This document shows positions 1 through 14,962 of a stretch of 14,962 nt of DNA, piece by piece. Each line of letters opens with the position of its first letter. Within the stretch, counting starts at the first letter, position 1. The position numbers and the translations under genes were made by a program. The notes beneath the pieces were generated by a model, which ran no database searches, was not told the DNA's origin, and saw only the letters and a program-made list of their open reading frames with translations. The DNA is from a virus (Duplodnaviria; Heunggongvirae; Uroviricota; Caudoviricetes). Location of the stretch: IMG/VR virus record IMGVR_UViG_2529293000_000008; one strand, written 5' to 3'.

Positions 1-165
1 ATGGCAAAGCCGATCATCACGCTCAATGGCCTAAAAATCGTCATTATGTTGGGAATGCTGGTCATTATTCTCTGCGGTATCCGTTTTGCCGCCGAGATCA
101 TCGTGCCGTTTATTCTCGCATTATTTATTGCTGTTATATATAACTTATTTCGCATAACACATTGA
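1..165 (+). pseudogene. tqsA: 5' fragment of a host inner-membrane transporter gene (AI-2E/PerM family, TqsA/YdgG-like), truncated and fused to foreign sequence at the island junction
   Basis: ORF starts at nt 1 and encodes [46 protein letters not shown], a hydrophobic transmembrane N-terminus that matches TqsA/YdgG as I recall it (not searched). After about codon 46 it continues as YNLFRITH and stops at 163-165, so only a 54-codon fusion remains. Confidence 0.45.
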
Positions 166-344
166 TTTAATTAAATAATTAACACCGCAAAAAGTGCCAA
201 AAATCGCAAAATGACTACACCAGTGACTACACCGTTCGGTGCACTGTATGAAACAACGTGGAACAAATAGACACAAGAAATATACAGGCGGATCATCTTT
301 CCAGGGGGAAGCACACCAATTCATGAGGGGCGTTAATGTCGATA

Positions 345-609
345 TGGGGATCCCCACCTACCGGAATTTTTTTCCGGTTAAACGTTAATCAGGCTGGTGG
401 GCTTTACCTGTTCGGTAGGTGTTATGATTATCGTAATACCTTTCCCCCAATGGGGTAAAAGCATCAACCGTAACGAAAGTCGTTATGGTTGCCACTGATA
501 CCCCAAATTTGGGTATCACGAGTAAGCCCCAAAATCTGGGTGTTACTCTTACTACCCAAACTACGGGTAGTTTCCGTAGTTTCATGGTCGAGTTGCAGAT
601 CTGCAACTC
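345..609. repeat. Cluster of perfect and near-perfect palindromes in non-coding DNA beside the island junction (function unknown; candidate packaging or recombination site)
   Basis: Read directly: tggggatcccca 345-356; ccggaatttttttccgg 361-377; 9 bp inverted repeat cacctaccg 355-363 with cggtaggtg 413-421; cccccaatgggg 444-455; cccaaatttggg 502-513; ccccaaaatctggg 527-540; aactacgg/ccgtagtt 559-581; 20 bp perfect palindrome gagttgcagatctgcaactc 590-609. Confidence 0.5.
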
Positions 610-863
610 CCCCATTAACCACAGGCGAATTTCCGCCTTCGGTCATTCCTTAATCATCTGCGTAATCATAATGATTATTCAGCAAGCGCAATTTTGCGCT
701 TTGCTTAAAGTTCAGCGAGTTACCGCGCCGACTTCCTCAAATTGAGGTTTCCGAAAATATCAGCGGGTTAGCGATTAAGCTGACCATTAATTAAACTGCG
801 AAAATGTCGTAGTTGTGAGGGGTGTAGCCAACCCATTTTTGGGCCGTCGGGAATATCAACCAG

Positions 864-1145
864 TTACCGCCGCAACCGCTCCGGCTTCTTCCAGTGGTAC
901 GTTATTTTCTCCTTCTCCCGATACATCTCCACGCGGCGACGGTAGGCCAGCAACTCAAGAACTCTGGTTCGTATGTTGCGCATATCCACGCCATTAAGTT
1001 CTATACCATCACGGCGCATCACCTCAGCAACAACACGCGCATAGTTTTCGGCTGTCACGCTGTCCGGCTGCGTGGCCTGTTCGTCAGCCTGCTGGCTGAT
1101 TCCGGCAACGCGGCGGATTAATCCCGTTATTTCGGCTTCTGTCAT
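864..1145 (-). CDS. Hypothetical protein (93 aa) at the distal end of the packaging operon
   Basis: ATG at 1145 preceded by a GAGG Shine-Dalgarno; begins 14 nt after the TerL stop on the same strand; no recognisable motif. Confidence 0.5.
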   Translation of the reverse strand: MTEAEITGLIRRVAGISQQADEQATQPDSVTAENYARVVAEVMRRDGIELNGVDMRNIRTRVLELLAYRRRVEMYREKEKITYHWKKPERLRR

Positions 1146-1158
1146 GCTGCTGACCTCA

Positions 1159-2820
1159 TTACACCCCGCTAAATTCTTCCAGTTTCTGGCGGTGGCTGTC
1201 GCTTATATCAAAAGCAAAATCCTCATGCTCTGCCTGGAATGTACCAAACGCCATCAGCGCCGCCACGCTCGGGTCTATCTTGTTCGGTGATTTTTTCTTG
1301 TTCGGCTTGATATTGGCGTTCGCGTCACTCTGCATCACGACGTTACTCATCGACCAGGACAACACCGGATCGCCACGATGCACAATCACCCTGCGGTTAA
1401 CAAAAACTTCGAACGATTTCGCCGCCGGACTGAATCTGAGGTAGGTTTGCGGGAACGGCTCCACCTCAAAACCTGCCCCCTGTAATTGCGTTCTGAGATG
1501 CGTGGCGTTCCACGTATCAAAGCCCACCAGCCTGATATTAAATTTCTCCGCGTCCTGCATGATGTCATCTCTGATCCGGTCGTAATCAATGCAGTCGCCA
1601 GGCGTTGTGCGTATCCAGCCTGCTTTAGCCCACTGACGATAGATGGCGCGGTTTTTATTGGCGGGGTTCTGTAGCTGAAATTCCGGCAGATAGTGACGGG
1701 AAACCAGCATAATGGTTTTACCGACCGGAAAGGCATAGCACACGCTGGAAATATCGCTGGTTGATGATAAGTCCAGCCCCGCGTAACACTCCTGGCCGTG
1801 TAAATCTTCCTCCGTGAACGTTCCGGCACACTCAGCCCATGCGCCGTTACCCATCCACGGGGTAGCCCCCTGGCACCAGATATTAAATCGCTTTGTCATC
1901 ATCTCCACCCACTGCGACGGAATACCCCGCGCTTTCTGGATGGTTGAGGCCAGTTTTTCACGATCGACGGAAACATCAATATTAGGGTTCGCCTTTATCC
2001 ACATCGCCGGATCATCAACCTCGTTTTCGTCGTCCAGTTCGTAAATCAGTACAAAAATTGAATCGTTAACCTCTTCGCCGTCCAGGATCTGGCAGCAATA
2101 ATCATAGTGCTGCTTACAGGCTGAAACGACGTTGCTGCCTGATGTGGTAATGGCAAATAACAGCCCTTCGGGACGTGCGCCCATCCCCAGCTCAAGCGCG
2201 GAATAAACGCCGTTATCGGGGTGCAAGTGGTATTCGTCCACGATGGAAAGGCTGGGGTTTGTTCCCTCGATGGTTGCCGCTTTTGCTGCCAGCGGCTTTA
2301 ACAGGCTGTTGCTTTTCGGGTGTATCACCTTATGCGCCTGAATATTCACCCGCCTGCGTAACGGTCGGGATAAAAGGCACATCTGACGCGCATCATCAAA
2401 GACGATCCGCGCCTGGTCACGGCTCACCGCTGCGGTGTAGATATCCTGCTGACCGTTCTCCATAATCAGAAACCAGTTAGCCAGAATCGCGGCGGTCGTG
2501 GATTTCGCATTTTTGCGCGGCACTTCGATAAAGGCGCTCGTGTATTTGCGCCGTCCGGTGGCCTTAACCTTAAAGCCGAGGATGCACGCAAAGGCGAACT
2601 GCTGCCACGGCTCCAGCTCAATGGGTCTGCCACGCATCGGTCCTTTTACGTGCGGGCACACCCTGGAAAAGGCAATAAACCGCTCCACAACCTCACGATC
2701 GAACGTGTAAAGGGGGCTTTTAAGGTCCGAAAAGTACCGTTTAACGGCCTGTTTCAGCCGTTTACAGGCCGGAATTTTGCCCGTTTTTACGTCTTCTGCG
2801 TACTTATTCCAGGCGGTCAA
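1159..2820 (-). CDS. terL: Terminase large subunit (TerL)
   Basis: 553 aa; terminase-type deviant P-loop (PRKNAKST), size and overall pattern typical of TerL; TTG start at 2820 preceded by GAGGA; overlaps the TerS 3' end, consistent with translational coupling. Confidence 0.9.
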   Translation of the reverse strand: MTAWNKYAEDVKTGKIPACKRLKQAVKRYFSDLKSPLYTFDREVVERFIAFSRVCPHVKGPMRGRPIELEPWQQFAFACILGFKVKATGRRKYTSAFIEVPRKNAKSTTAAILANWFLIMENGQQDIYTAAVSRDQARIVFDDARQMCLLSRPLRRRVNIQAHKVIHPKSNSLLKPLAAKAATIEGTNPSLSIVDEYHLHPDNGVYSALELGMGARPEGLLFAITTSGSNVVSACKQHYDYCCQILDGEEVNDSIFVLIYELDDENEVDDPAMWIKANPNIDVSVDREKLASTIQKARGIPSQWVEMMTKRFNIWCQGATPWMGNGAWAECAGTFTEEDLHGQECYAGLDLSSTSDISSVCYAFPVGKTIMLVSRHYLPEFQLQNPANKNRAIYRQWAKAGWIRTTPGDCIDYDRIRDDIMQDAEKFNIRLVGFDTWNATHLRTQLQGAGFEVEPFPQTYLRFSPAAKSFEVFVNRRVIVHRGDPVLSWSMSNVVMQSDANANIKPNKKKSPNKIDPSVAALMAFGTFQAEHEDFAFDISDSHRQKLEEFSGV

Positions 2821-3160
2821 GCTCGTCCTCTTCTTCTGTTTCCGGTGGGTTTTTACGGCGGCTTATCGGGTCAAAACCGAGCAAGGAGGCCATTTTTATC
2901 ATCACCCTTTCAGCGTCTGATTTCGCGCTTAATGCGGGGTTTCTGCTCTCGCCGCCCTGACTGTTAACAATGCTGAACCCGCGCGCCGCAAGGTCTGCGA
3001 CGGCTTTCCGGTAAATGGAGTAGTTGACACAATACAGTTCCAGATTGCTCCAGTCGGCGGGGGTCAGGTCTCCCCGTTCCGCAAGCTGCCGCGATTTTTC
3101 CCGCCACTGCTTCACGGCGATGTCATCCAGGTAGGCGGGGGCTTTCGGTGGTCTTGCCAT
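2804..3160 (-). CDS. terS: Terminase small subunit (P27-family-like TerS)
   Basis: 118 aa, MARPPKAPAYLDD...LELYCVNYSIYRKA pattern typical of P27-family small terminase; ATG at 3160; lies directly upstream of TerL. Confidence 0.8.
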   Translation of the reverse strand: MARPPKAPAYLDDIAVKQWREKSRQLAERGDLTPADWSNLELYCVNYSIYRKAVADLAARGFSIVNSQGGESRNPALSAKSDAERVMIKMASLLGFDPISRRKNPPETEEEDELDRLE

Positions 3161-3282
3161 GCTTATTTTTCGTCAGATTATTTTTCAAAAAATTCCCGTG
3201 CATAAAAATTTGAGGAGGCGTTCGGTGCCCGGCGGGGTCGGGTTTGTCCTGAAAACGCCCCCCACCCCGCCATACAGCCTCA

Positions 3283-3465
3283 TCAGCGATTGCGGAAACA
3301 TTCCATAACCTCGCGGTCACGGTCGGTTAATCGCTTCGCTGTGATGCGTTCTGCGCGTCCTGACGCTTTATCTTTATGCCCTGTTTCCTGTGTCTTCCAT
3401 GCGTCACGCTGCCTTATAAGTCCACGGATAAGGCGGTTTTGTTCCCGCTCATTCATCAGCGTCAT
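3283..3465 (-). CDS. Possible small basic protein (about 60 aa) between HNH and TerS
   Basis: Internal ATG of the 3283..3687 ORF overlapping the HNH stop; Arg/Lys-rich; weak or no Shine-Dalgarno, so the call is tentative. Confidence 0.25.
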   Translation of the reverse strand: MTLMNEREQNRLIRGLIRQRDAWKTQETGHKDKASGRAERITAKRLTDRDREVMECFRNR

Positions 3466-3889
3466 ACATCCAGTTATTGCGGTTAGCGGCCCGTTCTTCA
3501 TCTTCACGAAATCCACCTGCGGCACGCTTGCTTTTTGTTGCCGGATCAAGCCATTTCGTTTTCTGGTTATGACACGCCTGACACAATGGCTGATGGTTCC
3601 ATTCGGGCCAGAAGAGAACATCATCGCCGCCATCGATGGGGATAATGTGATCCACCACCACGGCGGGCGTATATATCCCCTTCTCAAGGCATCGCACGCA
3701 TAACGGGTTTTTACTCAGATACATGGCGCGGTATTTGTCCCACTGTCTGGAGTACCCACGCGCGCGGCGGTGTCCTCGTCTGGCATCCTCTGCACGCCAT
3801 GCCGCCCGCCTGTGCTCCTCACACTTACCGGACTTAACGCGCCTGTTACAGCCTGGTTCTGTACATCGTCTTAATGGTTGCCACGGCAT
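3449..3889 (-). CDS. HNH endonuclease (terminase-associated)
   Basis: 146 aa with Cys-rich N-terminus (CTEPGCNRRVKSGKCEEH) and HNH core (DHIIPIDGG...NHQPLCQACHNQKT); sits immediately upstream of terS as in HK97-type cos packaging modules. Confidence 0.85.
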   Translation of the reverse strand: MPWQPLRRCTEPGCNRRVKSGKCEEHRRAAWRAEDARRGHRRARGYSRQWDKYRAMYLSKNPLCVRCLEKGIYTPAVVVDHIIPIDGGDDVLFWPEWNHQPLCQACHNQKTKWLDPATKSKRAAGGFREDEERAANRNNWMYDADE

Positions 3890-4182
3890 CAGTACACCCC
3901 CACATCACGGTAAGCCGTCCAGAGTGCGCCTATCGTCATGGGTACGCGCGTTTTTGCGTTATCCGCGACAATCTGGCGATTTTCATACAGGTGAGCGATA
4001 AACATCATGCAGCCAATCTTTATGGCTGGCGTGAACTCCAGCCCGTCATCAAAGCGCCTGCCTATGTGTATCTGGCACGCCTCAAGCGATGCGGCAATGT
4101 ATCCGCTGATTAACTGGTCTTCATCGTCGCCATCGATGCGGCAATGGAGTTTCACTTCTTCCAGGGTGATAAGTTCTGTCAT
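3889..4182 (-). CDS. Head-tail connector protein (gp6-like)
   Basis: 97 aa, MTELITLEEVKLHCRIDGDDEDQLISGYIAAS pattern typical of gp6-like connectors; ATG at 4182; its stop overlaps the HNH start by one base. Confidence 0.8.
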   Translation of the reverse strand: MTELITLEEVKLHCRIDGDDEDQLISGYIAASLEACQIHIGRRFDDGLEFTPAIKIGCMMFIAHLYENRQIVADNAKTRVPMTIGALWTAYRDVGVY

Positions 4183-4517
4183 TTTTCCGCGCCCTCACGA
4201 CAAAGAATTTCAAGGCGTGTCCTGGCGGCATCTGGCAGCGGTTGCCCGATGATATTCAGTACACGCCCCGCCAGCGGCCCCGTATTGACCTTTATCCGAC
4301 TGGTGGCGTTGATGTCCTTCCGGTAGCGTATCCATATCCTTACAGTTCCAGTCGCCAGCTCTGCACCTGATGAAATGGCCTCCTTGCTGCTGATCATGTT
4401 CACGCTTGCCCAGAGTGTGTGACCGTCCACCCACGTTTCGAGTATTTCGCCCGTCATGGCTCTGGTCTGTTTCAGGGTCTGAATCGTTACCCTGTCACGC
4501 AGTCGCCCTATGTTCAT
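4179..4517 (-). CDS. Head closure / head-tail joining protein (gp7- or SPP1 gp16-like)
   Basis: Start chosen at internal ATG 4517 (MNIGRLRDRVTIQ...) with a GGGAGA Shine-Dalgarno, overlapping the portal stop; IRYR and C-terminal pattern typical of head-closure proteins. Confidence 0.75.
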   Translation of the reverse strand: MNIGRLRDRVTIQTLKQTRAMTGEILETWVDGHTLWASVNMISSKEAISSGAELATGTVRIWIRYRKDINATSRIKVNTGPLAGRVLNIIGQPLPDAARTRLEILCREGAEK

Positions 4518-5725
4518 TCCGGTTTTTCTCCCTCGCTGATTTTTACTTCCTGTTTCCATGCCTGGCTGAACTCATCACCACCATCACGCGGTGACAGTCC
4601 TTCACGTTCGCGGGCTTCGTTCGGACACATAACGCCGGATTTGATGCCGCGCTCATAGGTGGCAAAGCGTTCGCCAGGTGTGGCCCGTAACAGGTCCGCG
4701 CTGTCAAACTCCACCTGATACCGGATACCAGGTACAGGCGAGGCCACCAGCAGGGCGTTTTTTATCTGCTGCTCAAAGTTCGCCAGCCACGGGCGCATCG
4801 TCATGGTGAGAAATGCGCGGCTTGCCTCGCTGAAATTGCTGTAGGTGCTGTTGCTGTATTCCTGCAAAAAAATCGGCGAGACGTTGAACATTCTGGCGAT
4901 GTCTTCAATGGTGAAGCGACGGGAGGCCAGCCATTCAGCATCCTGATTACTCATGCCCAGCTGCTGATAGCTCATACCCCCTTCAAGGATGGGCGTTTTT
5001 CCGGCGTTTCTGGCCCCTTTGTAGCGTTCCAGTGCGGCTAATGCCTGTTTGCCCTTCACGCCGTCCAGCCATTCGCCTGACGTGATAACCCCTGCCGCCA
5101 TCATGCCATCACGCATCACGCTCGCGCCGTGGCGTTGTTGGGCCAGCCCAAGCCCCAGCGATTCGCGGCAGATGGTTACAGGTGAGCGCCCCATAAAACC
5201 GTCATCCGTGGAGTAACGAAGGTGGAGAACCTCCCACGGTAAATAGTTGCGGGTGTTTCCGGTGTAGGCGTCAGTGATGCAGTAGCGCCAGTTATGCTCA
5301 CCTGTCTGCTCAACGTTCACCGACTGCGGCGGGTAAGGATGCAAAGCGACTGGAAAACCATCACGCCCCCACTGAATCACCGCATAAGCATTACCGTTTA
5401 ACAGGCAGTGGCGGATCATCATTCGCTTAAACTGGTAGGGGGTTTGCCATGCGTTCGGGCGCTCGTTGAGGATGTGATCGACCGGATGAGAATCAAGCCA
5501 CTCTCGGGCCTCCTTCCCCTTCTCATTGCGTACCAGGTACAGGTAACACGGCATGGTAGCCACCGCCTCAGAGATGACCGTGACGGCGTTCATGACGGCG
5601 GGCAGTGATTCCGCTGTCCCCGATGATACGTACTCACCCGCCCCCGTGTTCGATGTGCCAGCCAGCGCCATAAACTCATCAAGCGTCATGCTGCGCTGCT
5701 CTTTTTTTCTTCTGAAAGGCCACAT
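4514..5725 (-). CDS. Portal protein (HK97 family)
   Basis: 403 aa with the LLNGNAYA motif and overall HK97-family portal pattern; ATG at 5725. Confidence 0.9.
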   Translation of the reverse strand: MWPFRRKKEQRSMTLDEFMALAGTSNTGAGEYVSSGTAESLPAVMNAVTVISEAVATMPCYLYLVRNEKGKEAREWLDSHPVDHILNERPNAWQTPYQFKRMMIRHCLLNGNAYAVIQWGRDGFPVALHPYPPQSVNVEQTGEHNWRYCITDAYTGNTRNYLPWEVLHLRYSTDDGFMGRSPVTICRESLGLGLAQQRHGASVMRDGMMAAGVITSGEWLDGVKGKQALAALERYKGARNAGKTPILEGGMSYQQLGMSNQDAEWLASRRFTIEDIARMFNVSPIFLQEYSNSTYSNFSEASRAFLTMTMRPWLANFEQQIKNALLVASPVPGIRYQVEFDSADLLRATPGERFATYERGIKSGVMCPNEAREREGLSPRDGGDEFSQAWKQEVKISEGEKPE

Positions 5726-5726
5726 A

Positions 5727-6299
5727 TCACACCCCCGCTAAATCCGCCCACCAGCGGCGATTATCCGCACGCGGCATTTTTTCGGGGTGCTGCTCGTACA
5801 GGGAGCGGCGGGCCAGCTCCACGCCGGAATCAGGGTAAGCCGGTACGGATGTAACGGTAATTTCGTATAGTTCCGCCACCAGCACGGTGCGCACGCATGG
5901 ATCTGTTGTGGTATCCCATACATCCTTACGGGAACGAAAGCCAAAGCTCATGCCGGATATATCACCTCGTTTAACCAGTTCGATAACGTCGCGCCCTGTA
6001 CTGGTATCCGGTGGGGTCAGTTCAAAGCGTAACCCTGTTTCGTCCTCTTCCAGTTTCAGCGTGCCGGAACGGGTGCGCCCCAGTAACATGCTGTGGTCAT
6101 GCTCATACAGGCCGCGAACGTCATTACCCGCCGCAAGCCACTCAGTAAACGCCCCCCGCTGGAATTTTTCGTAAAACTCCCCCCATAGCAGTTCTGAAAG
6201 CTTATCCCAGCGAACAACGTAGCCCGTCAGCGTACCGGCTCCGCTGGTAGTGATTTCCGATGACCGGATTTCCATACTCTTCATAATTTTTTCACCCAT
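5727..6299 (-). CDS. Prohead maturation protease (HK97 family)
   Basis: 190 aa with G-x-L-x-GY, HDHS..LGR and GMSFGF motifs typical of HK97 prohead proteases; the true start may be the internal ATG at 6284. Confidence 0.9.
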   Translation of the reverse strand: MGEKIMKSMEIRSSEITTSGAGTLTGYVVRWDKLSELLWGEFYEKFQRGAFTEWLAAGNDVRGLYEHDHSMLLGRTRSGTLKLEEDETGLRFELTPPDTSTGRDVIELVKRGDISGMSFGFRSRKDVWDTTTDPCVRTVLVAELYEITVTSVPAYPDSGVELARRSLYEQHPEKMPRADNRRWWADLAGV

Positions 6300-6308
6300 A
6301 AAACACTA

Positions 6309-6328
6309 AAGGGGCTTTTAAGCCCCTT
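6309..6328 (-). terminator. Stable hairpin between the capsid and protease genes (possible attenuator)
   Basis: aaggggcttttaagcccctt forms an 8 bp GC-rich stem with a 4 nt loop; on the minus-strand RNA it is followed by UAGUGUUUU just before the protease start. Confidence 0.4.
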
Positions 6329-6338
6329 CTGTATGCTG

Positions 6339-7496
6339 TTAATCGTCGTCCTGTGGCAGTTCCAGAATCTTGATCGCGTTCGAATCCACCACGCCACCGC
6401 CTAAATATTTCTGCGTGAAAATTTTGATGAAGCCCGGCTCTGTGAGGTTGTCCGGTCTGGTGCGAACACCTGTTTCGTGATCAACAATGTAGTAACCGCG
6501 TTTGAAGTCACCCAGGGCAATAACGTTATCAGGCATAAACTCCAGATATTCGACCGGAAGGCCCAGCAACGTATCAGGATCACCCGCCTGTAAACGGTCG
6601 CGCCAGATGTAATCACCGTTCGCGTTCTTCACCTTCTGAAGTTTTGCCGCCGTCGTGGAGTTAACCACCCAGACCGCGTTTTTGCGGTATTTTTTACGTA
6701 ATGCAAATTTCAGGTCGATCAGCGGGTCCGCAGATGTCCACGCCAGAGATTCGGAAGGTTTAATTACCTGCAACGTACCAAAATCACGCTCTTTGTCGTT
6801 CTTCTCTGCACGGGGTACGGATAAAAAACCTTTTGCTTTTTTGTCACCGTCGCCCACAACCAGATCGCTTTCTTCGGTTTCCGTGAAGGTGTCGCCAATC
6901 TCACCCGTCAGCCATGAAAGGATGTCCACATCGGAAAAATCCACGATTTCCTGTGTGGTGCGCGGGTACGCATAGACCGGATACAGCTTAATGCTCACCT
7001 CGTTAATCTGCGGGGTGCTGGTCTGTTCGCGTGTCTTACCCTCTTCACCGTGGTTAACGGTCGCACCGCCAGCGGAAACAAGCTGCTTAAACTCGTTGCT
7101 GCTGATTTTCTTCACGGTACAGATGCGGCGCATGGTGGATTCATCCGTCAGCATTCGCATGATTTCGGTGTTCAGTTCGGGGATAACGGTATAACCACCA
7201 TCAGCGGGAACGCCTGTACTTAATGCGCGGGTTTCACCTGTCAGAATGTAGTTGCGTAGTTCTGCGGGGTCAGTGGTCTGGCTGCTTTTACCTGGCTTGC
7301 TGCGCTCTTCGTCTGCAATGGCTTCAAGGCGGGAAATGTCTTTATCGAGGGATTCAGCTTTAGCGCGTAATTCGTCAAATTTTGCGCCCTCAGCATCGTT
7401 AAGACTGCGGTTTTCTTTTTCCGCGTTCTCCAGCATGTCGCGCATCTGATTTTTAATGGCGGTTTTCTGCTGGCGTAATTCGATTATTCTCGGCAT
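6339..7496 (-). CDS. Major capsid protein (HK97 fold) with N-terminal coiled-coil delta/scaffold domain
   Basis: Start taken at ATG 7496 (MPRIIELRQQ...); the track ORF extends to a GTG at 7544; N-terminal charged coiled-coil region followed by capsid-like body. Confidence 0.9.
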   Translation of the reverse strand: MPRIIELRQQKTAIKNQMRDMLENAEKENRSLNDAEGAKFDELRAKAESLDKDISRLEAIADEERSKPGKSSQTTDPAELRNYILTGETRALSTGVPADGGYTVIPELNTEIMRMLTDESTMRRICTVKKISSNEFKQLVSAGGATVNHGEEGKTREQTSTPQINEVSIKLYPVYAYPRTTQEIVDFSDVDILSWLTGEIGDTFTETEESDLVVGDGDKKAKGFLSVPRAEKNDKERDFGTLQVIKPSESLAWTSADPLIDLKFALRKKYRKNAVWVVNSTTAAKLQKVKNANGDYIWRDRLQAGDPDTLLGLPVEYLEFMPDNVIALGDFKRGYYIVDHETGVRTRPDNLTEPGFIKIFTQKYLGGGVVDSNAIKILELPQDDD

Positions 7497-7575
7497 AAAA
7501 AAAGTCCTGGGGTTAAGTAAGGAACTCCAGGACGCGGCAAACACTCAACCGTTTTTCATAAGGAAATCAGTAATC

Positions 7576-7625
7576 GCACCGATCGTTTTCCCGCCTGGTA
7601 ATGAATATTGGCGAGCACATTAACA
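7576..7625. promoter_or_regulatory. Long inverted repeat in the region upstream of the capsid operon
   Basis: ttttcccgcctggtaatg (7576-7593) and cattaacaggcgggaaaa (7608-7625) are reverse complements with one mismatch, separated by 14 bp. Confidence 0.4.
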
Positions 7626-7754
7626 GGCGGGAAAATGGCCCCAGCGTCCTGGCACCACGGGCGAGAATAATCATGATTCAGGTCGGGTAAAATATGCCGT
7701 TCCGGTCAGCGAGCAACGTGGAACAACCACGAACAAATAATTTACAAAACATGA

Positions 7755-7777
7755 CAAAAAGCCGGATTGCTCCGGCT
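7755..7777 (-). terminator. Intrinsic terminator after the PerC-like gene, separating the early/replication operon from the head operon
   Basis: Minus-strand RNA forms agccgga-gcaa-tccggct followed by UUUUU; located 7 nt downstream of the stop at 7784. Confidence 0.5.
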
Positions 7778-7783
7778 GTGTGA

Positions 7784-8059
7784 TTATCTGTCCTGGTAAT
7801 TTCGCCATATTTCATCGCTTACACCATCTATACCCATTTCAGCATAAGTGCGATCTACTGCCTTTCTCAGGTCTCCGAAGTTATCCGGCGGCTCCGGTGG
7901 CTTCTGTGCCTTCCTGGAACATTCCAGCCGTCGCATCGTAACCTGATGCCGTTCCTTGTCTGTCTCCACCAGCAGCATGACTTCACCCCATCGCGCCGAC
8001 GCCCTCCGGTAAAAGCCTTTCGCCTCGAGTTCTTCCGCTATGCGGTCATGTACCATCGC
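7784..8059 (-). CDS. PerC-family-like small transcriptional regulator
   Basis: Start chosen at internal ATG 8059 with strong GAGGGGG Shine-Dalgarno right after the SSB stop; MVHDRIAEELEAKGFYRRASARWGEV resembles the PerC/Pch signature as I recall it (not searched). Confidence 0.5.
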   Translation of the reverse strand, partial: AMVHDRIAEELEAKGFYRRASARWGEVMLLVETDKERHQVTMRRLECSRKAQKPPEPPDNFGDLRKAVDRTYAEMGIDGVSDEIWRNYQDR

Positions 8060-8066
8060 CACCCCC

Positions 8067-8477
8067 TCAGAACGGAATACCGTCACCGTAAGGGTCATCG
8101 CCTCCCGCTGGTGGCTGATTACCCTGTGTGCCTGTGGTTTTGCGTCTGTTCCCGCCAGGACGTGCCGCACGGGCACTGATTACGCTGTCTGCAATAACCT
8201 GATAACCCTGCCGCGTTTCCCCGTTCTGTCCCGTCCACTGGCTGACCTGCATCGTGCCGGATACGCTGGCAACGTCGCCTTTTTGATGTTTAGCCAGGAA
8301 GTCGGCCTGCTTACCAAATGCGATGACCGATAGCCATAACGTCGCCTGCCCATCCTGCGCCTGACTACATGGCAACGATACCGCCATACGCGCCAGCGTC
8401 ATCGGTGTGCCCTTACTGGTCTGTTTTACCTGCGGGTCGTCCACCAGCCGCCCGTAAGCCGCTATCTGTGCTGTCAT
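8067..8477 (-). CDS. ssb: Single-stranded DNA-binding protein (SSB-like)
   Basis: 136 aa; OB-fold-like core, Gly/Pro/Gln-rich linker and C-terminal acidic tip DDPYGDGIPF resembling the SSB DDDIPF tail; ATGA overlap with the upstream gene; GGAGAGG Shine-Dalgarno. Confidence 0.7.
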   Translation of the reverse strand: MTAQIAAYGRLVDDPQVKQTSKGTPMTLARMAVSLPCSQAQDGQATLWLSVIAFGKQADFLAKHQKGDVASVSGTMQVSQWTGQNGETRQGYQVIADSVISARAARPGGNRRKTTGTQGNQPPAGGDDPYGDGIPF

Positions 8478-8731
8478 GATTCCACCTCTCCGGTTTTAAC
8501 GTTGATGGTTGTTACCTGTTCCGCTTCGGCAATCTCCCGTTCTGTCAGCGTGGCAAAGTTTGCCGCCGCCGTGGTCATGAATGCGCTTATCAGGTCGGGA
8601 TGTGCTTTCGCGTATCCTTCCCCCGTGTTGCGGTCGATGATTTTTATCGCCACTCTCAGCCAGTGCTCTGTAAGGTCAATGGCGCGGTTATGCTGCTTCT
8701 TCTGATTATTAAGTTTTCCTGATGTGCGCAT
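8474..8731 (-). CDS. Hypothetical protein (85 aa)
   Basis: ATG at 8731, translationally coupled to ssb; no recognisable motif. Confidence 0.5.
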   Translation of the reverse strand: MRTSGKLNNQKKQHNRAIDLTEHWLRVAIKIIDRNTGEGYAKAHPDLISAFMTTAAANFATLTEREIAEAEQVTTINVKTGEVES

Positions 8732-8780
8732 TTTTATTTTTACCCCCTCGTTTAAAAAGTTTTGAGTTGTGCCTCCCCTT

Positions 8781-9006
8781 GTCTACCTTATCTACCTTAC
8801 TGGCTCTCATGCCAGTAATGGCGCGGCTTTCAGCGGGGTAGAGTGCTTTTATCCACTATCTACCCCGTATCTACCTCCCTGTCTGATTCAGGTAAAATCA
8901 GGTAGAGAGGGTAGATAGTAGGTAGACAGTGAAAAAAGGCTGTCTACCTAAGTTAATATACTGAATTAAATGTATTTTTCTTTACTCAGGTAGACAGGGT
9001 AGACAG
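8781..9006. repeat. Iteron array and AT-rich tract; putative origin of replication
   Basis: At least 11 copies of the heptamer GGTAGA(C/T/G) or its complement in both orientations: 8781-8787, 8790-8796, 8837-8843, 8858-8864, 8869-8875, 8901-8907, 8910-8916, 8921-8927, 8942-8948, and tandem GGTAGACAG at 8989-8997 and 8998-9006; AT-rich stretch 8950-8985; immediately 3' of the primase-helicase gene. Confidence 0.65.
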
Positions 9007-9019
9007 CCATTGCAAAAAA

Positions 9020-10774
9020 TTATAAAAACGCGTCGCAATCGTCTGTTGTTATTGCGTTAGTCTGCGTTACTCCCTTAACTTTCCGCGTAATATATTCATG
9101 TCCGTAAACTTTCGCGGCTGGCTTCATAGCCTTGCCAAAGTCATTTACGTTTAGCGGTTTGCTCCTGCCTGCGTACGCCATAAACGCCAGATAGACGCGG
9201 TAAAGGCTGTTTCTGGTCGTGTACTTCACTGAATCGCCACCGCCGCCCATCATCAGGCCGCGTGCTTCCTCCAGAAAATTCAGGAACTGGCAAAACTCAA
9301 TAACCGGATCCGTCTGTTGCTTTATTGCCAGTGCTTCATCACCGTCACGCTGTTCAATGAGTAAAGCCCGTGCCTTTTCAGGGTCGGCAAAGTTCGCCAG
9401 CAAGCGGCGGATAATCACAGGGATTTCAGCCGCGATCTTTTCCGGTAGCTCCCTGTCTTTTTCTGCCTCGCTTACGATGTTATCGAACCGGAATATCACC
9501 CGACGACGTGCCACACCTCCGGCCCGTTCGGTGAATATCATCGGATTGTTATTGGTTGCCAGCACCACCGCCCTGATTACCGCCGTAAAACGCTTTTCAT
9601 ATTTCGGGTTAATTTCCACGGGGTCGCCGCCCGTGATTTTCTTGATGCCCGTTCCTTCGCCTGTATATTTCGGCTGGTCTGCCAGGACGATAAGACGACT
9701 CCCGACAACCTGCGCACGCCCACCAGCATCATCAAGCGATGTCATTTCAGCGCTTACCGTGTTCTGTTTCCCTGCCAGAAGGCTGGCTATGTGTGTGAAT
9801 GTACTTTTACCGCTCCCGCCGTCTCCGGTGGCCTCAATAAACATCTGCCAGTCGTACCGGTTCGCCATAATCATGTACAGCGCGGCACATATACGCATCA
9901 TCTTGCGCGGGTCTTTTCCGGCTGCGTGCTCAAGCCATTTATGAAAGTTTGGCGCGTTATCGCGGATGTTCTCCCCTGGTGCTGGTGGCGTGTACTCAAT
10001 GCCGTTGTGCGTGGTGATCCAGTTCTCCGGCGTGTGCGGGGAAAATTCCCCCGTTTTCAGGTCAAGCGCACCATTGGCGAACGGCAGCAAATCGCCGGAC
10101 GGCTCGCCCATTGGTTCGGCAATAACTTTTAACGCTTCCACGGCGTTATTGATTACGCGCTTGCTGAAAGTGGCCCTGTGCTCTGAATAGATCGCCACCA
10201 TTTCGCGGCTAAGTTCCATTGTGCTGACCGGACACCATACCCCGCCGCGCCATACGTGAACGATTTCACTTTCAGGATGTACGCAAACGCCATCAAAGCG
10301 ATCGGCAAGCAGCTGCGCGCGCTCACTGTCCGCCATCTGCGAAAGTTGCGCCTTTTGCTTTACCGGAAGCTCAATGACCAGACCATCAGAAAGATTCTGG
10401 CGCTCACGGGCCAGATATTCGCGCCAGTTCTCCACCTTCTGACCGTGCATACCCTCAGGATAAAAATTTGCATCCTGTACGCCTGCCGCCGCCAGCTTCT
10501 GGCCAATCGCCTTTATCATTACTGGCGCAAGATATCCGGCCCTGAATATGCGCACGGATTTTCTGCCTTCCGGCACAATTTGCAGCTTATCCAGTTCTGA
10601 TAACTGCTGCTCCCCAAGCCACACAGGAGGCTCATTATCTCCGGCCATACGCGCATCATGTTCCTGCCATTGTTTCGCGTGTGCCCAGGCATCACTACCC
10701 GCAAAAATAATGACTTCTGTTCCTTTGTGTTTTATGCCGCGTGACTGCTGTTTTACGTTCGGTGCCAGTTTCAT
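9020..10774 (-). CDS. Replication initiator: P4/D5-type primase-helicase (Pri-Rep)
   Basis: 584 aa with Walker A GDGGSGKST and a Walker B-like RLIVLADQP segment in the C-terminal half, as in P4-alpha/D5-like helicases; ATGA coupling with the upstream ORF; AGGGGT Shine-Dalgarno. Confidence 0.85.
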   Translation of the reverse strand: MKLAPNVKQQSRGIKHKGTEVIIFAGSDAWAHAKQWQEHDARMAGDNEPPVWLGEQQLSELDKLQIVPEGRKSVRIFRAGYLAPVMIKAIGQKLAAAGVQDANFYPEGMHGQKVENWREYLARERQNLSDGLVIELPVKQKAQLSQMADSERAQLLADRFDGVCVHPESEIVHVWRGGVWCPVSTMELSREMVAIYSEHRATFSKRVINNAVEALKVIAEPMGEPSGDLLPFANGALDLKTGEFSPHTPENWITTHNGIEYTPPAPGENIRDNAPNFHKWLEHAAGKDPRKMMRICAALYMIMANRYDWQMFIEATGDGGSGKSTFTHIASLLAGKQNTVSAEMTSLDDAGGRAQVVGSRLIVLADQPKYTGEGTGIKKITGGDPVEINPKYEKRFTAVIRAVVLATNNNPMIFTERAGGVARRRVIFRFDNIVSEAEKDRELPEKIAAEIPVIIRRLLANFADPEKARALLIEQRDGDEALAIKQQTDPVIEFCQFLNFLEEARGLMMGGGGDSVKYTTRNSLYRVYLAFMAYAGRSKPLNVNDFGKAMKPAAKVYGHEYITRKVKGVTQTNAITTDDCDAFL

Positions 10775-11070
10775 TTTTTACCCCTGAATCCTTTAATCAT
10801 GGTTTTCATCTTCTGAATATTGGCGCGTGCTTTCTCCCTGCTGGTGGGCACGTTACGCGGTACGGCCTGCACAAGAGAAAAATCACGGTCGAACTGATAA
10901 ACAGGCATCACGCAATCATATTCGTAGCCTTCACGACGGTAGGTTACGCGCCGTTCCTCCACGCCCTTAATCATTACCGTGCCGCCGTACTTATCGCGGT
11001 AAATATCACCGCGCATGAATTTAGTGCGAGTTTTGCCACTGGCAGTTAAGCCAGAATATTTAAGTTTCAT
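10771..11070 (-). CDS. Hypothetical protein (99 aa), translationally coupled to the primase gene
   Basis: ATG at 11070 with GGAG Shine-Dalgarno; its stop overlaps the primase ATG; no recognisable motif. Confidence 0.5.
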   Translation of the reverse strand: MKLKYSGLTASGKTRTKFMRGDIYRDKYGGTVMIKGVEERRVTYRREGYEYDCVMPVYQFDRDFSLVQAVPRNVPTSREKARANIQKMKTMIKGFRGKK

Positions 11071-11075
11071 TATTT

Positions 11076-11309
11076 TTATTCTCCGGTGTGGGGCGCTTTA
11101 TACTGGTCGTGTAATGTCTCTATTTCCTGCAACTCATTTATTACAGGCTCAAGAAGCGTTATTAATGCCGTGACAATCCTTGATTTCTGTTTATCACGTT
11201 CATTATCTCCAAGCGTTTCAAGACATATGCGCAATATTTCCAACATATTTTCACTGTGAGAAAGTGCAAGAAATGCGCGGTCTATTGTTTCGTGGTAAAT
11301 ATCACGCAT
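11076..11309 (-). CDS. Hypothetical protein (77 aa)
   Basis: ATG at 11309 with GGGGA Shine-Dalgarno; same strand and operon; no recognisable motif. Confidence 0.5.
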   Translation of the reverse strand: MRDIYHETIDRAFLALSHSENMLEILRICLETLGDNERDKQKSRIVTALITLLEPVINELQEIETLHDQYKAPHTGE

Positions 11310-11378
11310 ATTAATCCCCGTCCGTCGTTTTTCTTAAAATAACCTCTGTCACGAAATCAGCATAATCGGCGGCGATAT

Positions 11379-11531
11379 TCAGTACATCAAGCCCCGTTGA
11401 TTTATATTCTCTCGTGGAAAGTAAGAAAAAGCCGCTCTAATAAGCTCTGGCATTGACGAAAGCGCATCAGCCGCATCATCAGGAACGCCGGAAAATTCCT
11501 GTTTCAGGGAATTAAAACGATCATCACGCAT
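11379..11531 (-). CDS. Hypothetical small protein (50 aa), not in the supplied ORF track
   Basis: Hand-translated from the minus strand: ATG at 11531 preceded by AGGGGGG, overlapping the upstream stop by 8 nt; MRDDRFNSLKQEFSGVPDDAADALSSMPELIRAAFSYFPRENINQRGLMY then TGA. Confidence 0.35.
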   Translation of the reverse strand: MRDDRFNSLKQEFSGVPDDAADALSSMPELIRAAFSYFPRENINQRGLMY

Positions 11532-11889
11532 GTTTACCCCCCTGAATGACCTGATAACCGCAACTGGTCAGCAACTCGATAAATTCCGGCAGTGTGCCGA
11601 AACAGCAATCATCACGCAGCCGTTCGCAGGATACCTCGACGCCGTTTTCGTAGTGACTCACCATACATCCGGTAAAATGCAGATCATCATCGTGATGGCT
11701 CGTTGACGGCTTAATCAGTCGCGCACGTTCCGCCAGTTCCAGCAATGCTTCAACGCTTCCGGCAATTGCACCATCCGGCAGGTGATAATTACGCACTATG
11801 CGCCCGTTCTCCACATTGACCAGCAACTGCCCGGTAAATTTCTCGTCAAACTGAATGCTGTTAAGGTCAGAAATTGACAGGTTATGCAT
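11524..11889 (-). CDS. Hypothetical protein (121 aa)
   Basis: Start chosen at ATG 11889 (MHNLSISDL...) with AGGAGG Shine-Dalgarno, overlapping the upstream ORF by 8 nt; no recognisable motif. Confidence 0.55.
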   Translation of the reverse strand: MHNLSISDLNSIQFDEKFTGQLLVNVENGRIVRNYHLPDGAIAGSVEALLELAERARLIKPSTSHHDDDLHFTGCMVSHYENGVEVSCERLRDDCCFGTLPEFIELLTSCGYQVIQGGKHA

Positions 11890-12106
11890 GGTGCACCTCC
11901 TGCACATCAGCCATGATAATTTTTCCGGCCTTATCCAGTGCCTGATCGGCTTTTAGCTGCACAAATGCTAAATAATGGAAGATGCATTCTGATTCTCTGG
12001 CTGCGTGTTTATGCGCCCTGTCAGCAATAACAGAAATATCAATAAGCGCGTGCATCAGCGTAGTGAGCGCGGCGGCTGCTGCGTCCGGTGTGGTTTTATT
12101 GCACAT
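11882..12106 (-). CDS. Hypothetical protein (74 aa)
   Basis: ATG at 12106 with AGGGGG Shine-Dalgarno; overlaps the upstream ORF stop. Confidence 0.5.
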   Translation of the reverse strand: MCNKTTPDAAAAALTTLMHALIDISVIADRAHKHAARESECIFHYLAFVQLKADQALDKAGKIIMADVQEVHHA

Positions 12107-12302
12107 GGCCTACCCCCTGGCGAATACGGGCAGCGAATACCATCACGCAGCCATCAGGAGATTGCTGACGCGCTTCCTGTTCGCTGGTGGCCTCGATGGT
12201 AATCACGCGCGGTTGTGCCGTGCTCAGGGCGATAAAACGCCAGATGTATTTATTCAGGTCGTGCGAATCCCGCCCTTGCGGGTGTGTGGTATGATTTCTC
12301 AT
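12096..12302 (-). CDS. Hypothetical protein (68 aa), first gene of the small-ORF operon
   Basis: 3' portion of the long 12096..13124 track ORF; internal ATG at 12302 with GAGG Shine-Dalgarno; the upstream part of the track ORF crosses the promoter/operator region and is judged spurious. Confidence 0.45.
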   Translation of the reverse strand: MRNHTTHPQGRDSHDLNKYIWRFIALSTAQPRVITIEATSEQEARQQSPDGCVMVFAARIRQGVGHVQ

Positions 12303-12399
12303 AGCTACCTCGATACTTTCGCTATCGTTGGTGGTTAGAAGCCCCGTTACTGCTCCTACAGTGCGGGGTTTCGTCGTTTCTGTGCCTTTCATCAACAAG

Positions 12400-12480
12400 G
12401 TGTAAGACACAATGTAAAACAATGGTGTCTTACACGTCAACCCTTCAAAATATTTTTTTTTCGTGTATATTGTCTTACAC
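12400..12480. promoter_or_regulatory. Divergent promoter region with three operator-like GTGT-N3-ACAC sites
   Basis: GTGTAAGACAC at 12400-12410, its reverse complement GTGTCTTACAC at 12425-12435, and tTGTCTTACAC at 12470-12480; a T-run and TATATT lie between sites 2 and 3; sits between minus-strand and plus-strand operons. Confidence 0.55.
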
Positions 12481-12501
12481 CAAAAACATGAGGGGTTAAA
12501 C

Positions 12502-12681
12502 ATGGCAACGGGTCCAAAGAATGCAAAATCACAATCTGTAACTGCACGTATTGCCCATGAAATTATTGAAGGCATGGAGAACGTGAAAGAAGAAGGCGAA
12601 AGCACGGGACAGTTTATAAACGCAGCCATGCGCGGCGAAATCAAACGCCGCCAGCGCCGCAAGGCCAAAGAACCAGAGTAA
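12502..12681 (+). CDS. Small DNA-binding protein, likely ribbon-helix-helix (CopG/Arc/MetJ-like) regulator
   Basis: 59 aa; ATG at 12502 with GAGGGG Shine-Dalgarno 6 nt upstream; SVTARIAHEIIEGMENVKEEGESTGQFINAAMRGEI fits a beta-strand, helix, G-x-S/T turn, helix RHH layout; basic C-terminal tail; opposite strand to the rest of the island. Confidence 0.5.
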   Translation: MATGPKNAKSQSVTARIAHEIIEGMENVKEEGESTGQFINAAMRGEIKRRQRRKAKEPE

Positions 12682-12738
12682 TCACCATCAGCGCCGTGGT
12701 GTAAGGTATTACGGCGCATTGCTATGCAGGACAACACA

Positions 12739-12912
12739 ATGACCGATAAAGAATTGACCAAAACATTATCACCGGCACGGAAAAGACGGCGCAGAAAGAT
12801 AGAACATGAATCAGAAAGATTCGCGCCATGTGCTTTTGCCCTTGAGCAATTCCTTAAAGAGTACAGGGAAAAGCGCTCATTGCAGGTATGGCAACGAACT
12901 GAACCAGACTGA
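12739..12912 (+). CDS. Hypothetical small basic protein (57 aa), second gene of the plus-strand operon
   Basis: ATG at 12739 with weak AGGA Shine-Dalgarno; contains a KRRRRK stretch; followed by an intrinsic terminator. Confidence 0.35.
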   Translation: MTDKELTKTLSPARKRRRRKIEHESERFAPCAFALEQFLKEYREKRSLQVWQRTEPD

Positions 12913-13009
12913 TTGCATTGCCCACCAGCCTGATAGCGGCTATCATCCCCGTGCTTATGTTTGGGATCACACACACAAACGGCGCAGCGGGTTATCTGTT
13001 CAGAAAGGC

Positions 13010-13037
13010 GGCTCCATTTCGGGGCCGCTTTTTTTAT
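13010..13037 (+). terminator. Rho-independent terminator of the plus-strand regulatory operon
   Basis: gcggctcc-atttc-ggggccgc hairpin (8 bp stem with one G-U pair) followed by TTTTTTT. Confidence 0.6.
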
Positions 13038-13181
13038 GCCTGAAAAACCCCAATTTTGTGGTTTTCCAGTCTCACCAGGGCGAACGAATCCCCGCCCACG
13101 TTCTGGCGTATATTCAATCTTCATGGTTATAGCTCTGTGTTCAGATGATTGATGTGTGGCGGCTGTGTGCCGCCAGCGTGA

Positions 13182-13370
13182 TTAATGAACTGCCTTGCAG
13201 CTATCCTTCCAGGCCAGAACCTCGGATAAAGACCAGCCAACGGAACGACCGCCAAGTTTACGACGTGATGGGAATTGTCCGGCCTTTTCCAGGCGGTAGC
13301 GGCATGAGCGGCTAAGGCCTGTTAGCTTTTCGCATTCTTTTTCACGTATAAACCGATCAGTGCTTAACAC
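13182..13370 (-). CDS. alpA: AlpA-family transcriptional regulator / excisionase-like protein
   Basis: 62 aa; LTGLSRSCRYRLEKAGQFPSRRKLGGRSVGWSLSEVLAW matches the AlpA-family HTH pattern; GTG start at 13370 with AAGGGGG Shine-Dalgarno. Confidence 0.85.
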   Translation of the reverse strand: MLSTDRFIREKECEKLTGLSRSCRYRLEKAGQFPSRRKLGGRSVGWSLSEVLAWKDSCKAVH

Positions 13371-13652
13371 TATTGCCCCCTTTCGTTTCTTAAAGAGTTA
13401 TTTCGTGTTCTATTGCGTTGGGATGTGTCTGATTGTGTCAGGATGATTCAGAGTTGGCAAATGTTGAGGTCGTATGGTTTACAGAAACAGGAATAATCAG
13501 GATAAAATCATTTAAATTCATGTTAATACAAAGGCATAAAATATTGTTTCATGCCTTTTTTATCGCTATTTAAAGAGTGATTCGCTAGTGTATAAAAAAC
13601 CAGTAACACATTAAAAATCAGCTACTTATAAATCCGTACACTTTTTCGCCTC

Positions 13653-13727
13653 TTGTTCGTAGTTGTTCCGCATTGTTGCTCATTGTTGCATGTTGTATCT
13701 GTTCGCATATCCAGTATGCGCATACTG
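13653..13727. promoter_or_regulatory. Helically phased TTGTT repeats plus a 16 bp perfect palindrome between int and alpA
   Basis: TTGTT at about 13653, 13663, 13674, 13684 and 13692 (near 10 bp spacing), including tandem cattgttgc at 13671-13690; palindrome CAGTATGCGCATACTG at 13712-13727, 18 nt downstream of the int stop. Confidence 0.4.
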
Positions 13728-13744
13728 AAAAAACACGAAAAAAA

Positions 13745-14962
13745 TTATTTTCTTCTGGCTACTGGTAGCGTGGTTACGTTTTCATGTGTTCCCGCCAGTA
13801 TCCCTAACCGCTCCGTCCACATATCCAGCGCATTGCGTTTAGCATCCAGATAACGGGAATGATTATAAACTCGCTGCATTCCTGGCATCTGATGACCTGT
13901 AAGCTGCTCCACGACATGCGGATCAACGCCTAAATCGTTCAGCATGGTTGTAAAGGTGCGCCGGATGTCATGCAGTGACCAGTGAGGATGATTAAGCCTC
14001 CTGTGCGCTAATCTTCCATACTGCGATACGCTGGCCTCCTGTTTCGCTTCCCCCAGCAATAAGCCCGTGTGCCTGTTCTGCTCCACCAGCTGCGTGACGA
14101 ACGGCAGGATCGCTTCCGGTATGGGCCGGAATATTGCGACCTTCGTTTTGCTGTGCTCCTTCGGAACGGTCCATAGCATTTCCGTAAAATCCCACTCCCC
14201 GATCTCCGATAGCCTCAGTTCTACCGTCCTGGCTCCGAAGACAATCAGGAGGCGGATTAACGCGACGTAGTAAGGGGAAAATATTTTTTTGTCCAGTGCC
14301 TGCAATAATTCGCCAAGTTCTTTGTTACTTAAGACACGTTCGCTTATATCCGGTTTTTTCCCAACGTCCGCCACGTTCAGATCGTCCAGAACGTTGCTGA
14401 TTGCATAGCGCCGCCTACGGCAGAACTTAAGCGCCTGTTTGCACGCCTGTAGCACGAATCCGGCAGTAACAGGCGTTCGCTTTGCCACCTGGTCAAAACA
14501 GGCCAGCCAGTGCCGTAGCTCGCATTTATCCAGCGGCATAGCACCAATCTGCTGTATTACGTGATTATTAAGTCGCCTTTTCAGGGCGATATAATCCACG
14601 CGGTTTTCCTTTACGTAATACTCAAGCCAGTAGGTGAGCGCATCGCCAACCGTTACGGGCTTTAACGCTTCCTGTACGGTGTAATTCATCTCATGACGTG
14701 GATTTTTCCCCTCAGCCAGCCATGTGCGACACTGTGCGGCTTTTTCCCTGGCTGCTTTCAGGCTCAGATCAGGATAACTTCCCAGCTTAATGCGTTCGGG
14801 TCGTGTCTCCCTTCCCGTTCCGGCCCTGTATGTGAAATACCAGGTCAATTTCCCTGATGTTAAATATTTCACGCTCAGGTTTCCGCCATCACTATAAAAC
14901 GTGTTTTTCTCCGCTGGCTTACCATGAAGTTTCCTTAGCAAGGTATCGCTCAGTTTGTTCAT
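13745..14962 (-). CDS. int: Tyrosine recombinase / integrase (P4-like)
   Basis: 405 aa; N-terminal arm-binding-like region (LTSGKLTWYFTYRAG...LGSYPDLSLKAAREKA) and C-terminal catalytic region with HDIRRT and RVYNHSRY (His/Arg/Tyr signature); start codon lies at the window edge. Confidence 0.92.
   Translation of the reverse strand: MNKLSDTLLRKLHGKPAEKNTFYSDGGNLSVKYLTSGKLTWYFTYRAGTGRETRPERIKLGSYPDLSLKAAREKAAQCRTWLAEGKNPRHEMNYTVQEALKPVTVGDALTYWLEYYVKENRVDYIALKRRLNNHVIQQIGAMPLDKCELRHWLACFDQVAKRTPVTAGFVLQACKQALKFCRRRRYAISNVLDDLNVADVGKKPDISERVLSNKELGELLQALDKKIFSPYYVALIRLLIVFGARTVELRLSEIGEWDFTEMLWTVPKEHSKTKVAIFRPIPEAILPFVTQLVEQNRHTGLLLGEAKQEASVSQYGRLAHRRLNHPHWSLHDIRRTFTTMLNDLGVDPHVVEQLTGHQMPGMQRVYNHSRYLDAKRNALDMWTERLGILAGTHENVTTLPVARRK

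Follow-up and report, generated by a model that had tools for sequence, protein, structure and literature searches.

Genetic organisation of the integrated element

The stretch of DNA analysed here, IMG/VR record IMGVR_UViG_2529293000_000008 (14,962 nucleotides (nt), called the window throughout), carries an integrated element that very probably belongs to the phage-inducible chromosomal islands of the capsid-forming kind (cf-PICIs), the prototype of which is EcCIEDL933. The window is a piece of Escherichia coli chromosome, with a full-length 100% match to three complete genomes. The RefSeq record NZ_AP043625.1, which is 100% identical to the window, was used as the reference for flanks and annotation; there, the window is neighboured by mdtJ/mdtI on the left and by pntB/pntA on the right. 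Transcription of the element runs essentially in one direction, with every gene on the minus strand except one.

The head and packaging operon is uninterrupted. Read in order of transcription on the minus strand, it encodes a major capsid protein of the HK97 fold that carries an N-terminal delta/scaffold region (6339-7496; Pfam Phage_capsid, 2e-61), a prohead serine protease of the HK97-type S78 family (5727-6299; Peptidase_S78, 7e-48), a portal (4514-5725; Phage_portal, 9e-91), a head-closure protein or head-tail adaptor (4179-4517; Phage_HCP, 2e-23), a gp6-like head-tail connector (3889-4182; Phage_connect_1, 5e-12), an HNH endonuclease that serves as packaging cofactor (3449-3889; HNH, 1e-8), a 60-amino-acid (aa) protein (3283-3465), a small terminase subunit (TerS) of the P27 family (2804-3160; Terminase_4, 1e-23) and a large terminase subunit (TerL; 1159-2820; TerL_nuclease, 1e-50, and TerL_ATPase, 1e-25). 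The capsid protein is identical at 385 of 385 residues to PDB chain 9gyi_B ('Major head protein'), and its RefSeq accession, WP_001137345.1, is common to the window element and the EDL933 island. Since a cryo-electron microscopy (cryo-EM) structure of the EcCIEDL933 capsid has been published, with T=4 geometry, and the two sequences agree at every residue, 9gyi is presumably the entry for that capsid. A cleavage motif, SxGxxAD, is found at residues 93-99 of the protein, in agreement with the reported mature N-terminus.

Upstream of the head genes, on the same strand, lie the genes for replication, regulation and integration. A primase-helicase (pri-rep) of 584 aa and of the D5_N/DUF5906/Pox_D5 type (Pfam; 9020-10774) is followed directly downstream by a replication origin at 8779-9006, in which ten GGTAGAYAG iterons in both orientations surround an A+T-rich spacer. 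With one mismatch allowed, this motif occurs 12 times in the window (3.2 expected), 10 times within 8779-9006, and none of 200 shuffled sequences reached 12. A gene for the activator AlpA (13182-13370; Phage_AlpA, 5e-18) stands beside that for a tyrosine integrase with an arm-binding domain (13745-14962; Arm-DNA-bind_3 and Phage_integrase), the annotated start of which is at window-equivalent position 14974, 12 nt past the window edge. An earlier note, made from the letters of the window alone, had described a complete set of capsid, protease, portal, head-closure, connector, HNH, TerS and TerL genes together with int, alpA, a primase-helicase and an origin; the head and packaging set is present in full with strong Pfam matches, int, alpA and the primase-helicase gene likewise have Pfam matches and share its minus strand, and the clustered iterons show the origin to be real.

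Precise integration into tqsA

The element lies inside the host gene tqsA, which encodes an exporter of autoinducer-2 (AI-2). RefSeq assigns window nt 1-144 to the 5' end of tqsA, and the 3' part of the gene restarts 189 nt past the right edge; comparison with the empty site of E. coli K-12 places the host fragment outside the element at 1-137 (plus strand), cut after about codon 45. A 9-bp core, TGCTGTTAT, is present as a direct repeat at both junctions, with the int-distal copy at 129-137 and the second at window-equivalent 15150-15158, 188 nt past the right window edge. As K-12 has a single TGCTGTTAT copy and uninterrupted flanks at this site, the insertion into tqsA is exact. Measured from core to core the element is 15,021 bp long; element-specific sequence begins at 138, and the right boundary, seen in NZ_AP043625.1, falls outside the window at window-equivalent 15149-15158.

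These boundaries revise the interval of 139-14962 given in the earlier note, the left end of which was correct to within 1 nt and the right end of which was wrong. Its size estimate of under 15 kb holds as a scale of ~15 kb, the actual length being slightly greater. The note had also advised looking beyond the right edge for a second att repeat and for tail genes, and had named tail or lysis genes of the same element just past the window as the finding that would overturn its interpretation. Direct inspection of this region revealed 188 nt of element sequence and the second att copy, after which the remainder of tqsA (its 3' part) and pntB follow; no tail or lysis genes are present there, which excludes that condition.

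Each att arm also contains one copy of a 59-nt repeat with tandem TGACTACACC motifs, at 208-266 and at window-equivalent 14996-15054 (22996-23054 of locus L001). The two copies are in direct orientation and identical at 48 of 59 positions, and from their sequence and placement they probably are arm-type binding sites of the integrase.

The element has the full gene set of a capsid-forming island

The SatelliteFinder model of cf-PICIs is built on 11 core components, and genes for tails and holins are forbidden in it. If the components are taken to be int, regulator, primase, capsid, protease, portal, adaptor, connector, HNH, TerS and TerL, all 11 are present at full length, each with a strong Pfam match. 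They are arranged as an island of 15,021 bp between 9-bp repeats, within the ~10-16 kb typical of att-bounded cf-PICIs with an integrase, with an AlpA-type regulator beside int, a primase-replicase with an adjacent origin, and the island's own capsid, protease and portal, adaptor and connector, and HNH/TerS/TerL. The order capsid, protease, portal, connectors, hnh, terS, terL is that published for proteobacterial cf-PICIs. Pfam and PHROGs scans of all annotated genes and open reading frames (ORFs) between the att sites, and a PADLOC scan of the small ORFs for defence, gave no match to tail, holin, lysis or defence families.

To compare the element with its prototype, EcCIEDL933 was located in the EDL933 genome by the roxA/phoQ context obtained from an exact-protein look-up. 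Over 6.9 kb, the DNA of the head and packaging block matches that of EcCIEDL933 at 97% identity, and the core genes have the same lengths in both elements. Identity is 100% for the capsid protein, TerS, the single-stranded DNA-binding protein (SSB) and the 60-aa protein, 99.5% for the portal, 99.3% for HNH, 98.9% for the connector, 98.7% for TerL, 98.4% for AlpA, 97.9% for the protease, 97.8% for the PerC-family activator and 95.5% for the head-closure protein; it is lower for the integrase (91%) and for the primase (83%, in the first 163 aa only).

Taken together, these data leave us highly confident that the window carries a cf-PICI, a close sibling of EcCIEDL933, integrated in tqsA. The earlier note had read the element as a head-only, cf-PICI-like satellite and not a prophage, in part because it saw no tail or lysis genes; that reading is supported by the 11 core components, by near-identity to the prototype and by the absence of tail and holin genes, the element having no tail or lysis gene between its att sites and host genes on both flanks. 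The element is not new, being a re-identification of a well characterised family published in 2022-2023. Its packaging proteins match those of EcCIEDL933 at 95.5-100% identity, and on this ground the behaviour of the prototype, namely induction by a helper, small island-encoded capsids containing only island DNA, and a need for helper tails, can be inferred for it by analogy.

Alternative explanations

Several points narrow what this assignment implies. Activity and helper dependence of the present copy are extrapolated from its relatives, the position of its cos site is a prediction, and its replication module differs from that of the prototype, so that helper or inducer specificity could differ. 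RefSeq calls two accessory genes, at 11329-11531 and 12609-13124, pseudogenes, and a 328-bp segment with a 74-aa gene, located between perC and the capsid gene of EcCIEDL933, is absent here. None of this contradicts the cf-PICI assignment. The pseudogenes and the deletion, together with the lack of any detected defence or other cargo gene that selection might keep, could nonetheless indicate an island that is a cf-PICI by descent and of which this copy is defective or in early decay, not inducible or poorly transferred. We consider this unlikely. All 11 of the 11 core genes are full length, with the lengths seen in the functional prototype, both att copies are intact, as are the arm repeats, and the disrupted genes lie in regions described as variable among islands (bioRxiv 10.1101/2025.02.11.637232). 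Copies 96.6-100% identical are moreover found in 157 complete genomes from diverse sources, and an identical copy (L009) exists in a separate assembly. The idea of a defective copy is therefore not favoured, as the core genes are intact and the element is common.

If the head genes were the remnant of an HK97-like prophage from which tail and lysis genes had been deleted during decay, this would account for the HK97-type character of those genes and for pseudogenes in the early region. Against such a remnant, the att boundaries are clean, with 9 bp duplicated, the empty site is exact, and the same architecture recurs at two E. coli sites and in further genera. No tail, lysis or immunity module or remnant was found inside the att-bounded 15 kb, nor any partial tail or lysis gene anywhere in the element; no phage record holds the module beyond ~70% identity over ~56% of its length; and in published phylogenies the capsid and TerL proteins of cf-PICIs fall in clades apart from those of phages. 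We judge a prophage origin of this kind to be highly improbable. We assign close to negligible probability to a P4-like satellite or to a classical PICI, elements that would remodel the capsids of a helper and not build their own, even though int, alpA and a D5-type primase are shared with P4-like elements and classical E. coli PICIs. P4 has none of the capsid, protease, portal, connector and TerL genes found here, all of which, and the adaptor as well, the classical PICI model forbids; Pfam and PHROGs scans gave no Sid- or Psu-type match among the small ORFs, nor one to delta, and the full head module is present. A gene transfer agent (GTA), suggested by the second-best PDB match of the capsid protein, was ruled out by the integrase, the att sites, the element's own replication module and its element-specific packaging set.

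Further features of the element

In HK97-type cos phages, cos sits between HNH and terS. The corresponding place in the window, between the 60-aa gene and terS, is a conserved, G-rich intergenic region (3161-3282, minus strand), and we tentatively predict the cos site there from sequence. A linear record of a 70%-identical relative, LR881103, ends inside a homologous GGGGTGGGGG..TTTTCAGGAC motif, which may be the depositor's chosen start point. The sole match returned for this region as a query was a 1.6-kb unannotated fragment from an O157 strain. The adjoining 60-aa protein occupies the same place between HNH and terS in EcCIEDL933, and we take it, by gene order, to be the counterpart of gene 1792 of that island, mutation of which severely reduces transfer (bioRxiv 10.1101/2022.09.08.507074).

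Immediately after the capsid stop codon and before the protease gene, a G+C-rich hairpin of 9 pairs is followed by a T-run (6308-6329, minus strand). Its position suggests that this terminator-like structure may act as an attenuator setting the ratio of capsid to protease; the overall count of terminator-like sites was not above chance. The operon ends with a gene for a 93-aa protein of no assigned function (864-1145, minus strand; phrog_1561, 3e-56) that is 87% identical to its EcCIEDL933 homologue.

Beyond that gene, the element continues as a non-coding tail that includes the att arm (138-863, minus strand), delimited by blastn against related loci. Positions 156-493 are 90% identical to EcCIEDL933, and 494-863 are variable and contain repeats. 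Within these 726 nt, no Pfam match for ORFs, no match in the phage collection and no Rfam match was found. An int-distal stretch of this size without a convincing gene exceeds what an att arm usually needs.

Between the capsid gene and the origin, all on the minus strand, are genes for a PerC-family transcriptional activator (7784-8056; Pfam PerC, 7e-45), for SSB (8067-8477; Pfam SSB, 4e-17) and for an 85-aa protein of no assigned function (8474-8731; phrog_1231, 84% identical to EcCIEDL933). Upstream of the primase gene, and again on the minus strand, a DUF4222 protein (10771-11070; Pfam, 2.5e-24) is preceded by a group of small early genes annotated by RefSeq at 11076-12302, which encode products of 77, 121 and 74 aa and a 68-aa Icd-like protein, with a frameshifted pseudogene among them (11329-11531). 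The remaining small ORFs fall in PHROG families of no assigned function, the exception being the Icd-like protein, the families of which are labelled transcriptional repressor. PADLOC found no defence protein among the small ORFs, and Rfam, searched with the full window at a threshold of E <= 0.1, gave no match; a C4-type antisense RNA close to the Icd-like gene was likewise not seen.

The sole plus-strand gene encodes a small protein of the YlcI/YnfO family (12502-12681; RefSeq, phrog_949). It is separated from the leftward Icd-like operon by a 14-nt inverted repeat at 12400-12435, found in an inverted-repeat scan between divergent promoter-like hexamers (12440-12411 on the minus strand and 12444-12471 on the plus strand), and this arrangement suggests that the repeat may be an operator. 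Downstream of alpA, a truncated variable gene on the minus strand (12609-13124) is annotated by RefSeq as a pseudogene and is 83% identical to a 247-aa EcCIEDL933 protein. Where RefSeq has this pseudogene and the Icd-like gene, there is a continuous minus-strand ORF of 342 aa (12096-13124), which the plus-strand YlcI gene overlaps; in locus L005 a 430-aa ORF is called at this place. The GC skew is flipped over ~12000-13500.

Prevalence, module exchange and relatives

The prevalence of the element was assessed in 5,426 complete E. coli genomes, counting matches with at least 80% coverage at one place. The window element was found in 157 of them (~3%), and its head module in 410 (7.6%). Among the records listed, those after the best five are 96.6% identical to the window. 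The tqsA site is uninterrupted in 5,170 of 5,423 matching genomes, and ~250 carry an insertion there, 157 of these being the present element.

An exact-sequence look-up identified the same capsid and head module joined to at least four replication modules and at two chromosomal sites. The replication modules (loci L004, L005, L007 and L013, at ~5900-8600) include D5_N/DUF5906 proteins of 584 and 605 aa, a 710-aa DUF927 protein and a 466-aa AAA_25 protein. The presence of one head module at two sites with varied replication modules is evidence of mobility, and such shuffling fits the published observation that the early region is swapped among PICI-type satellites. The integrase, in turn, tracks the att site. 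Across loci L004-L014, copies at tqsA are 99-100% identical to that of the window, and copies at roxA/phoQ are 90-91% identical, with most of the substitutions between the two groups lying within residues 1-60, in the arm-binding domain. This set of integrases across two sites could help to map att specificity.

Module synteny is preserved in Shigella, Citrobacter, Erwinia and Gilliamella. No phage record covers at least 80% of the head module; the best reach ~70% identity over ~56% of its length, and these best matches are elements of 15-16.5 kb. Two records deposited as phages were seen to have a cf-PICI layout: LR881103.1 ('Escherichia phage vB_KppS-Ant', 16,548 bp; locus L028) and OR544139 (Pasteurella phage Pmp8, 15.3 kb). 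Both run int, regulator, primase, capsid, protease, portal, connectors, TerS and TerL, and from this organisation they probably are satellites that were sequenced from particles. In vB_KppS-Ant, a 765-aa gene annotated as a tape measure protein occupies the cargo slot after terL.

These results matter for annotation, as elements of this kind are easily called incomplete prophages and some relatives have been deposited as phages of 15-16.5 kb. What is at stake is a class of autonomous satellites that build their own heads and move DNA between strains and species on borrowed tails. To the published family the present copy contributes an att site in tqsA with its core and arm repeats, an integrase that tracks its att site, and one near-invariant head module combined with several replication and integration modules. 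Of these, only the tqsA site might extend, in one detail, what has been published on the family. A literature search for tqsA together with PICI turned up no paper, and that tqsA is one of six published attB sites could not be confirmed from the literature.

The interrupted gene was retained on both sides of the island, its 3' part continuing from window-equivalent 15150 (23150-24056 of locus L001) after TGA and TAA stop codons in frame. Carriers therefore probably lack active TqsA, and the gene would be restored if the island excised precisely at the 9-bp core. It is conceivable, if quite improbable, that in the ~4-5% of E. coli with an insertion at tqsA the island reversibly switches AI-2 export and biofilm behaviour, much as in active lysogeny.

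Proposed life cycle

Gene content, boundaries, origin repeats and near-identity to the prototype are observed, and on them a life cycle can be proposed in which every functional step is inferred from experiments with EcCIEDL933 and with EcCICFT073. The tyrosine integrase would keep the element in the chromosome at the 9-bp core until a helper phage turned on alpA, whereupon AlpA would activate the island; such a role as a helper-switched activator has been demonstrated for AlpA of EcCICFT073. The integrase would then excise the element, restoring tqsA, and the primase-helicase would copy the resulting circle from the iteron origin with help from the element's own SSB. Expression of the head operon would supply capsid protein, which the S78 protease would trim near residue 93, and small T=4 heads of ~46-47 nm would assemble on the portal. 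HNH, TerS and TerL would cut the element's own cos site and fill each head with one 15-kb unit. Finally, the head-closure and connector proteins would complete the head, and a siphovirus tail from an HK106-type helper would be attached.

Comparison with known systems

The capsid of the Rhodobacter capsulatus GTA (PDB 6tb9, 6tba) is the next-best solved relative of the window capsid (E = 3e-46) and likewise forms small heads. By contrast, the GTA packages random host DNA and lacks an integrase, an att site and a replication module, all three of which the window element has. With phages HK97 and HK106 the element has in common a capsid protein of the HK97 fold, the N-terminal region of which is cleaved by a protease, and cos packaging by HNH, TerS and TerL. 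Sequence similarity to these phages is low, their heads are T=7 as against T=4, no capsid crosslink has been reported for the island, and tail, lysis and immunity genes are absent from the window element, unlike HK97 and HK106.

Among satellites, P4 also encodes an integrase, an AlpA/Vis-like regulator and a D5-type primase, but it uses Sid and Psu to remodel P2 capsids, has no head genes and can persist as a plasmid. Classical PICIs such as EcCICFT073 are closer in their int/alpA/pri-rep early region, helper-switched AlpA, unidirectional transcription and PerC-type regulators; unlike the window element, they lack genes for capsid, portal, connector and TerL and rely on the capsids of a helper. 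EcCIGN02175 and KpCIDSM30104, which have been studied for the release of tail-less particles (bioRxiv 10.1101/2025.02.11.637232), are likewise cf-PICIs and share the module layout of the window element. As compared in that publication, their adaptor and connector are 35-63% identical to those of EcCIEDL933, whereas those of the window are of the EcCIEDL933 type.

The closest known system is EcCIEDL933 itself, from E. coli O157:H7 EDL933 (Alqurainy et al., bioRxiv 10.1101/2022.09.08.507074), which has the same gene order and unidirectional layout. The two islands differ in size (15,021 bp for the window element, 15,461 bp for EcCIEDL933) and in site, the former lying inside tqsA with the 9-bp core and the latter in the roxA-phoQ intergenic region with a 10-bp core, GGACATATTT. 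Their primases are of the D5_N/DUF5906 type (584 aa) and the DUF927 type (710 aa), respectively, and their early accessory genes differ, the plus-strand YlcI/YnfO gene being found in the window element. In EcCIEDL933, the helper induces the island via alpA, island-encoded capsids of 46-47 nm are formed, the island is packaged exclusively and helper tails are required (bioRxiv 10.1101/2022.09.08.507074). The choice of tail is set by the adaptor and connector, the EcCIEDL933 versions of which fit HK106 tails and not those of HK022, and tail-less heads can leave cells and join tails later (bioRxiv 10.1101/2025.02.11.637232).

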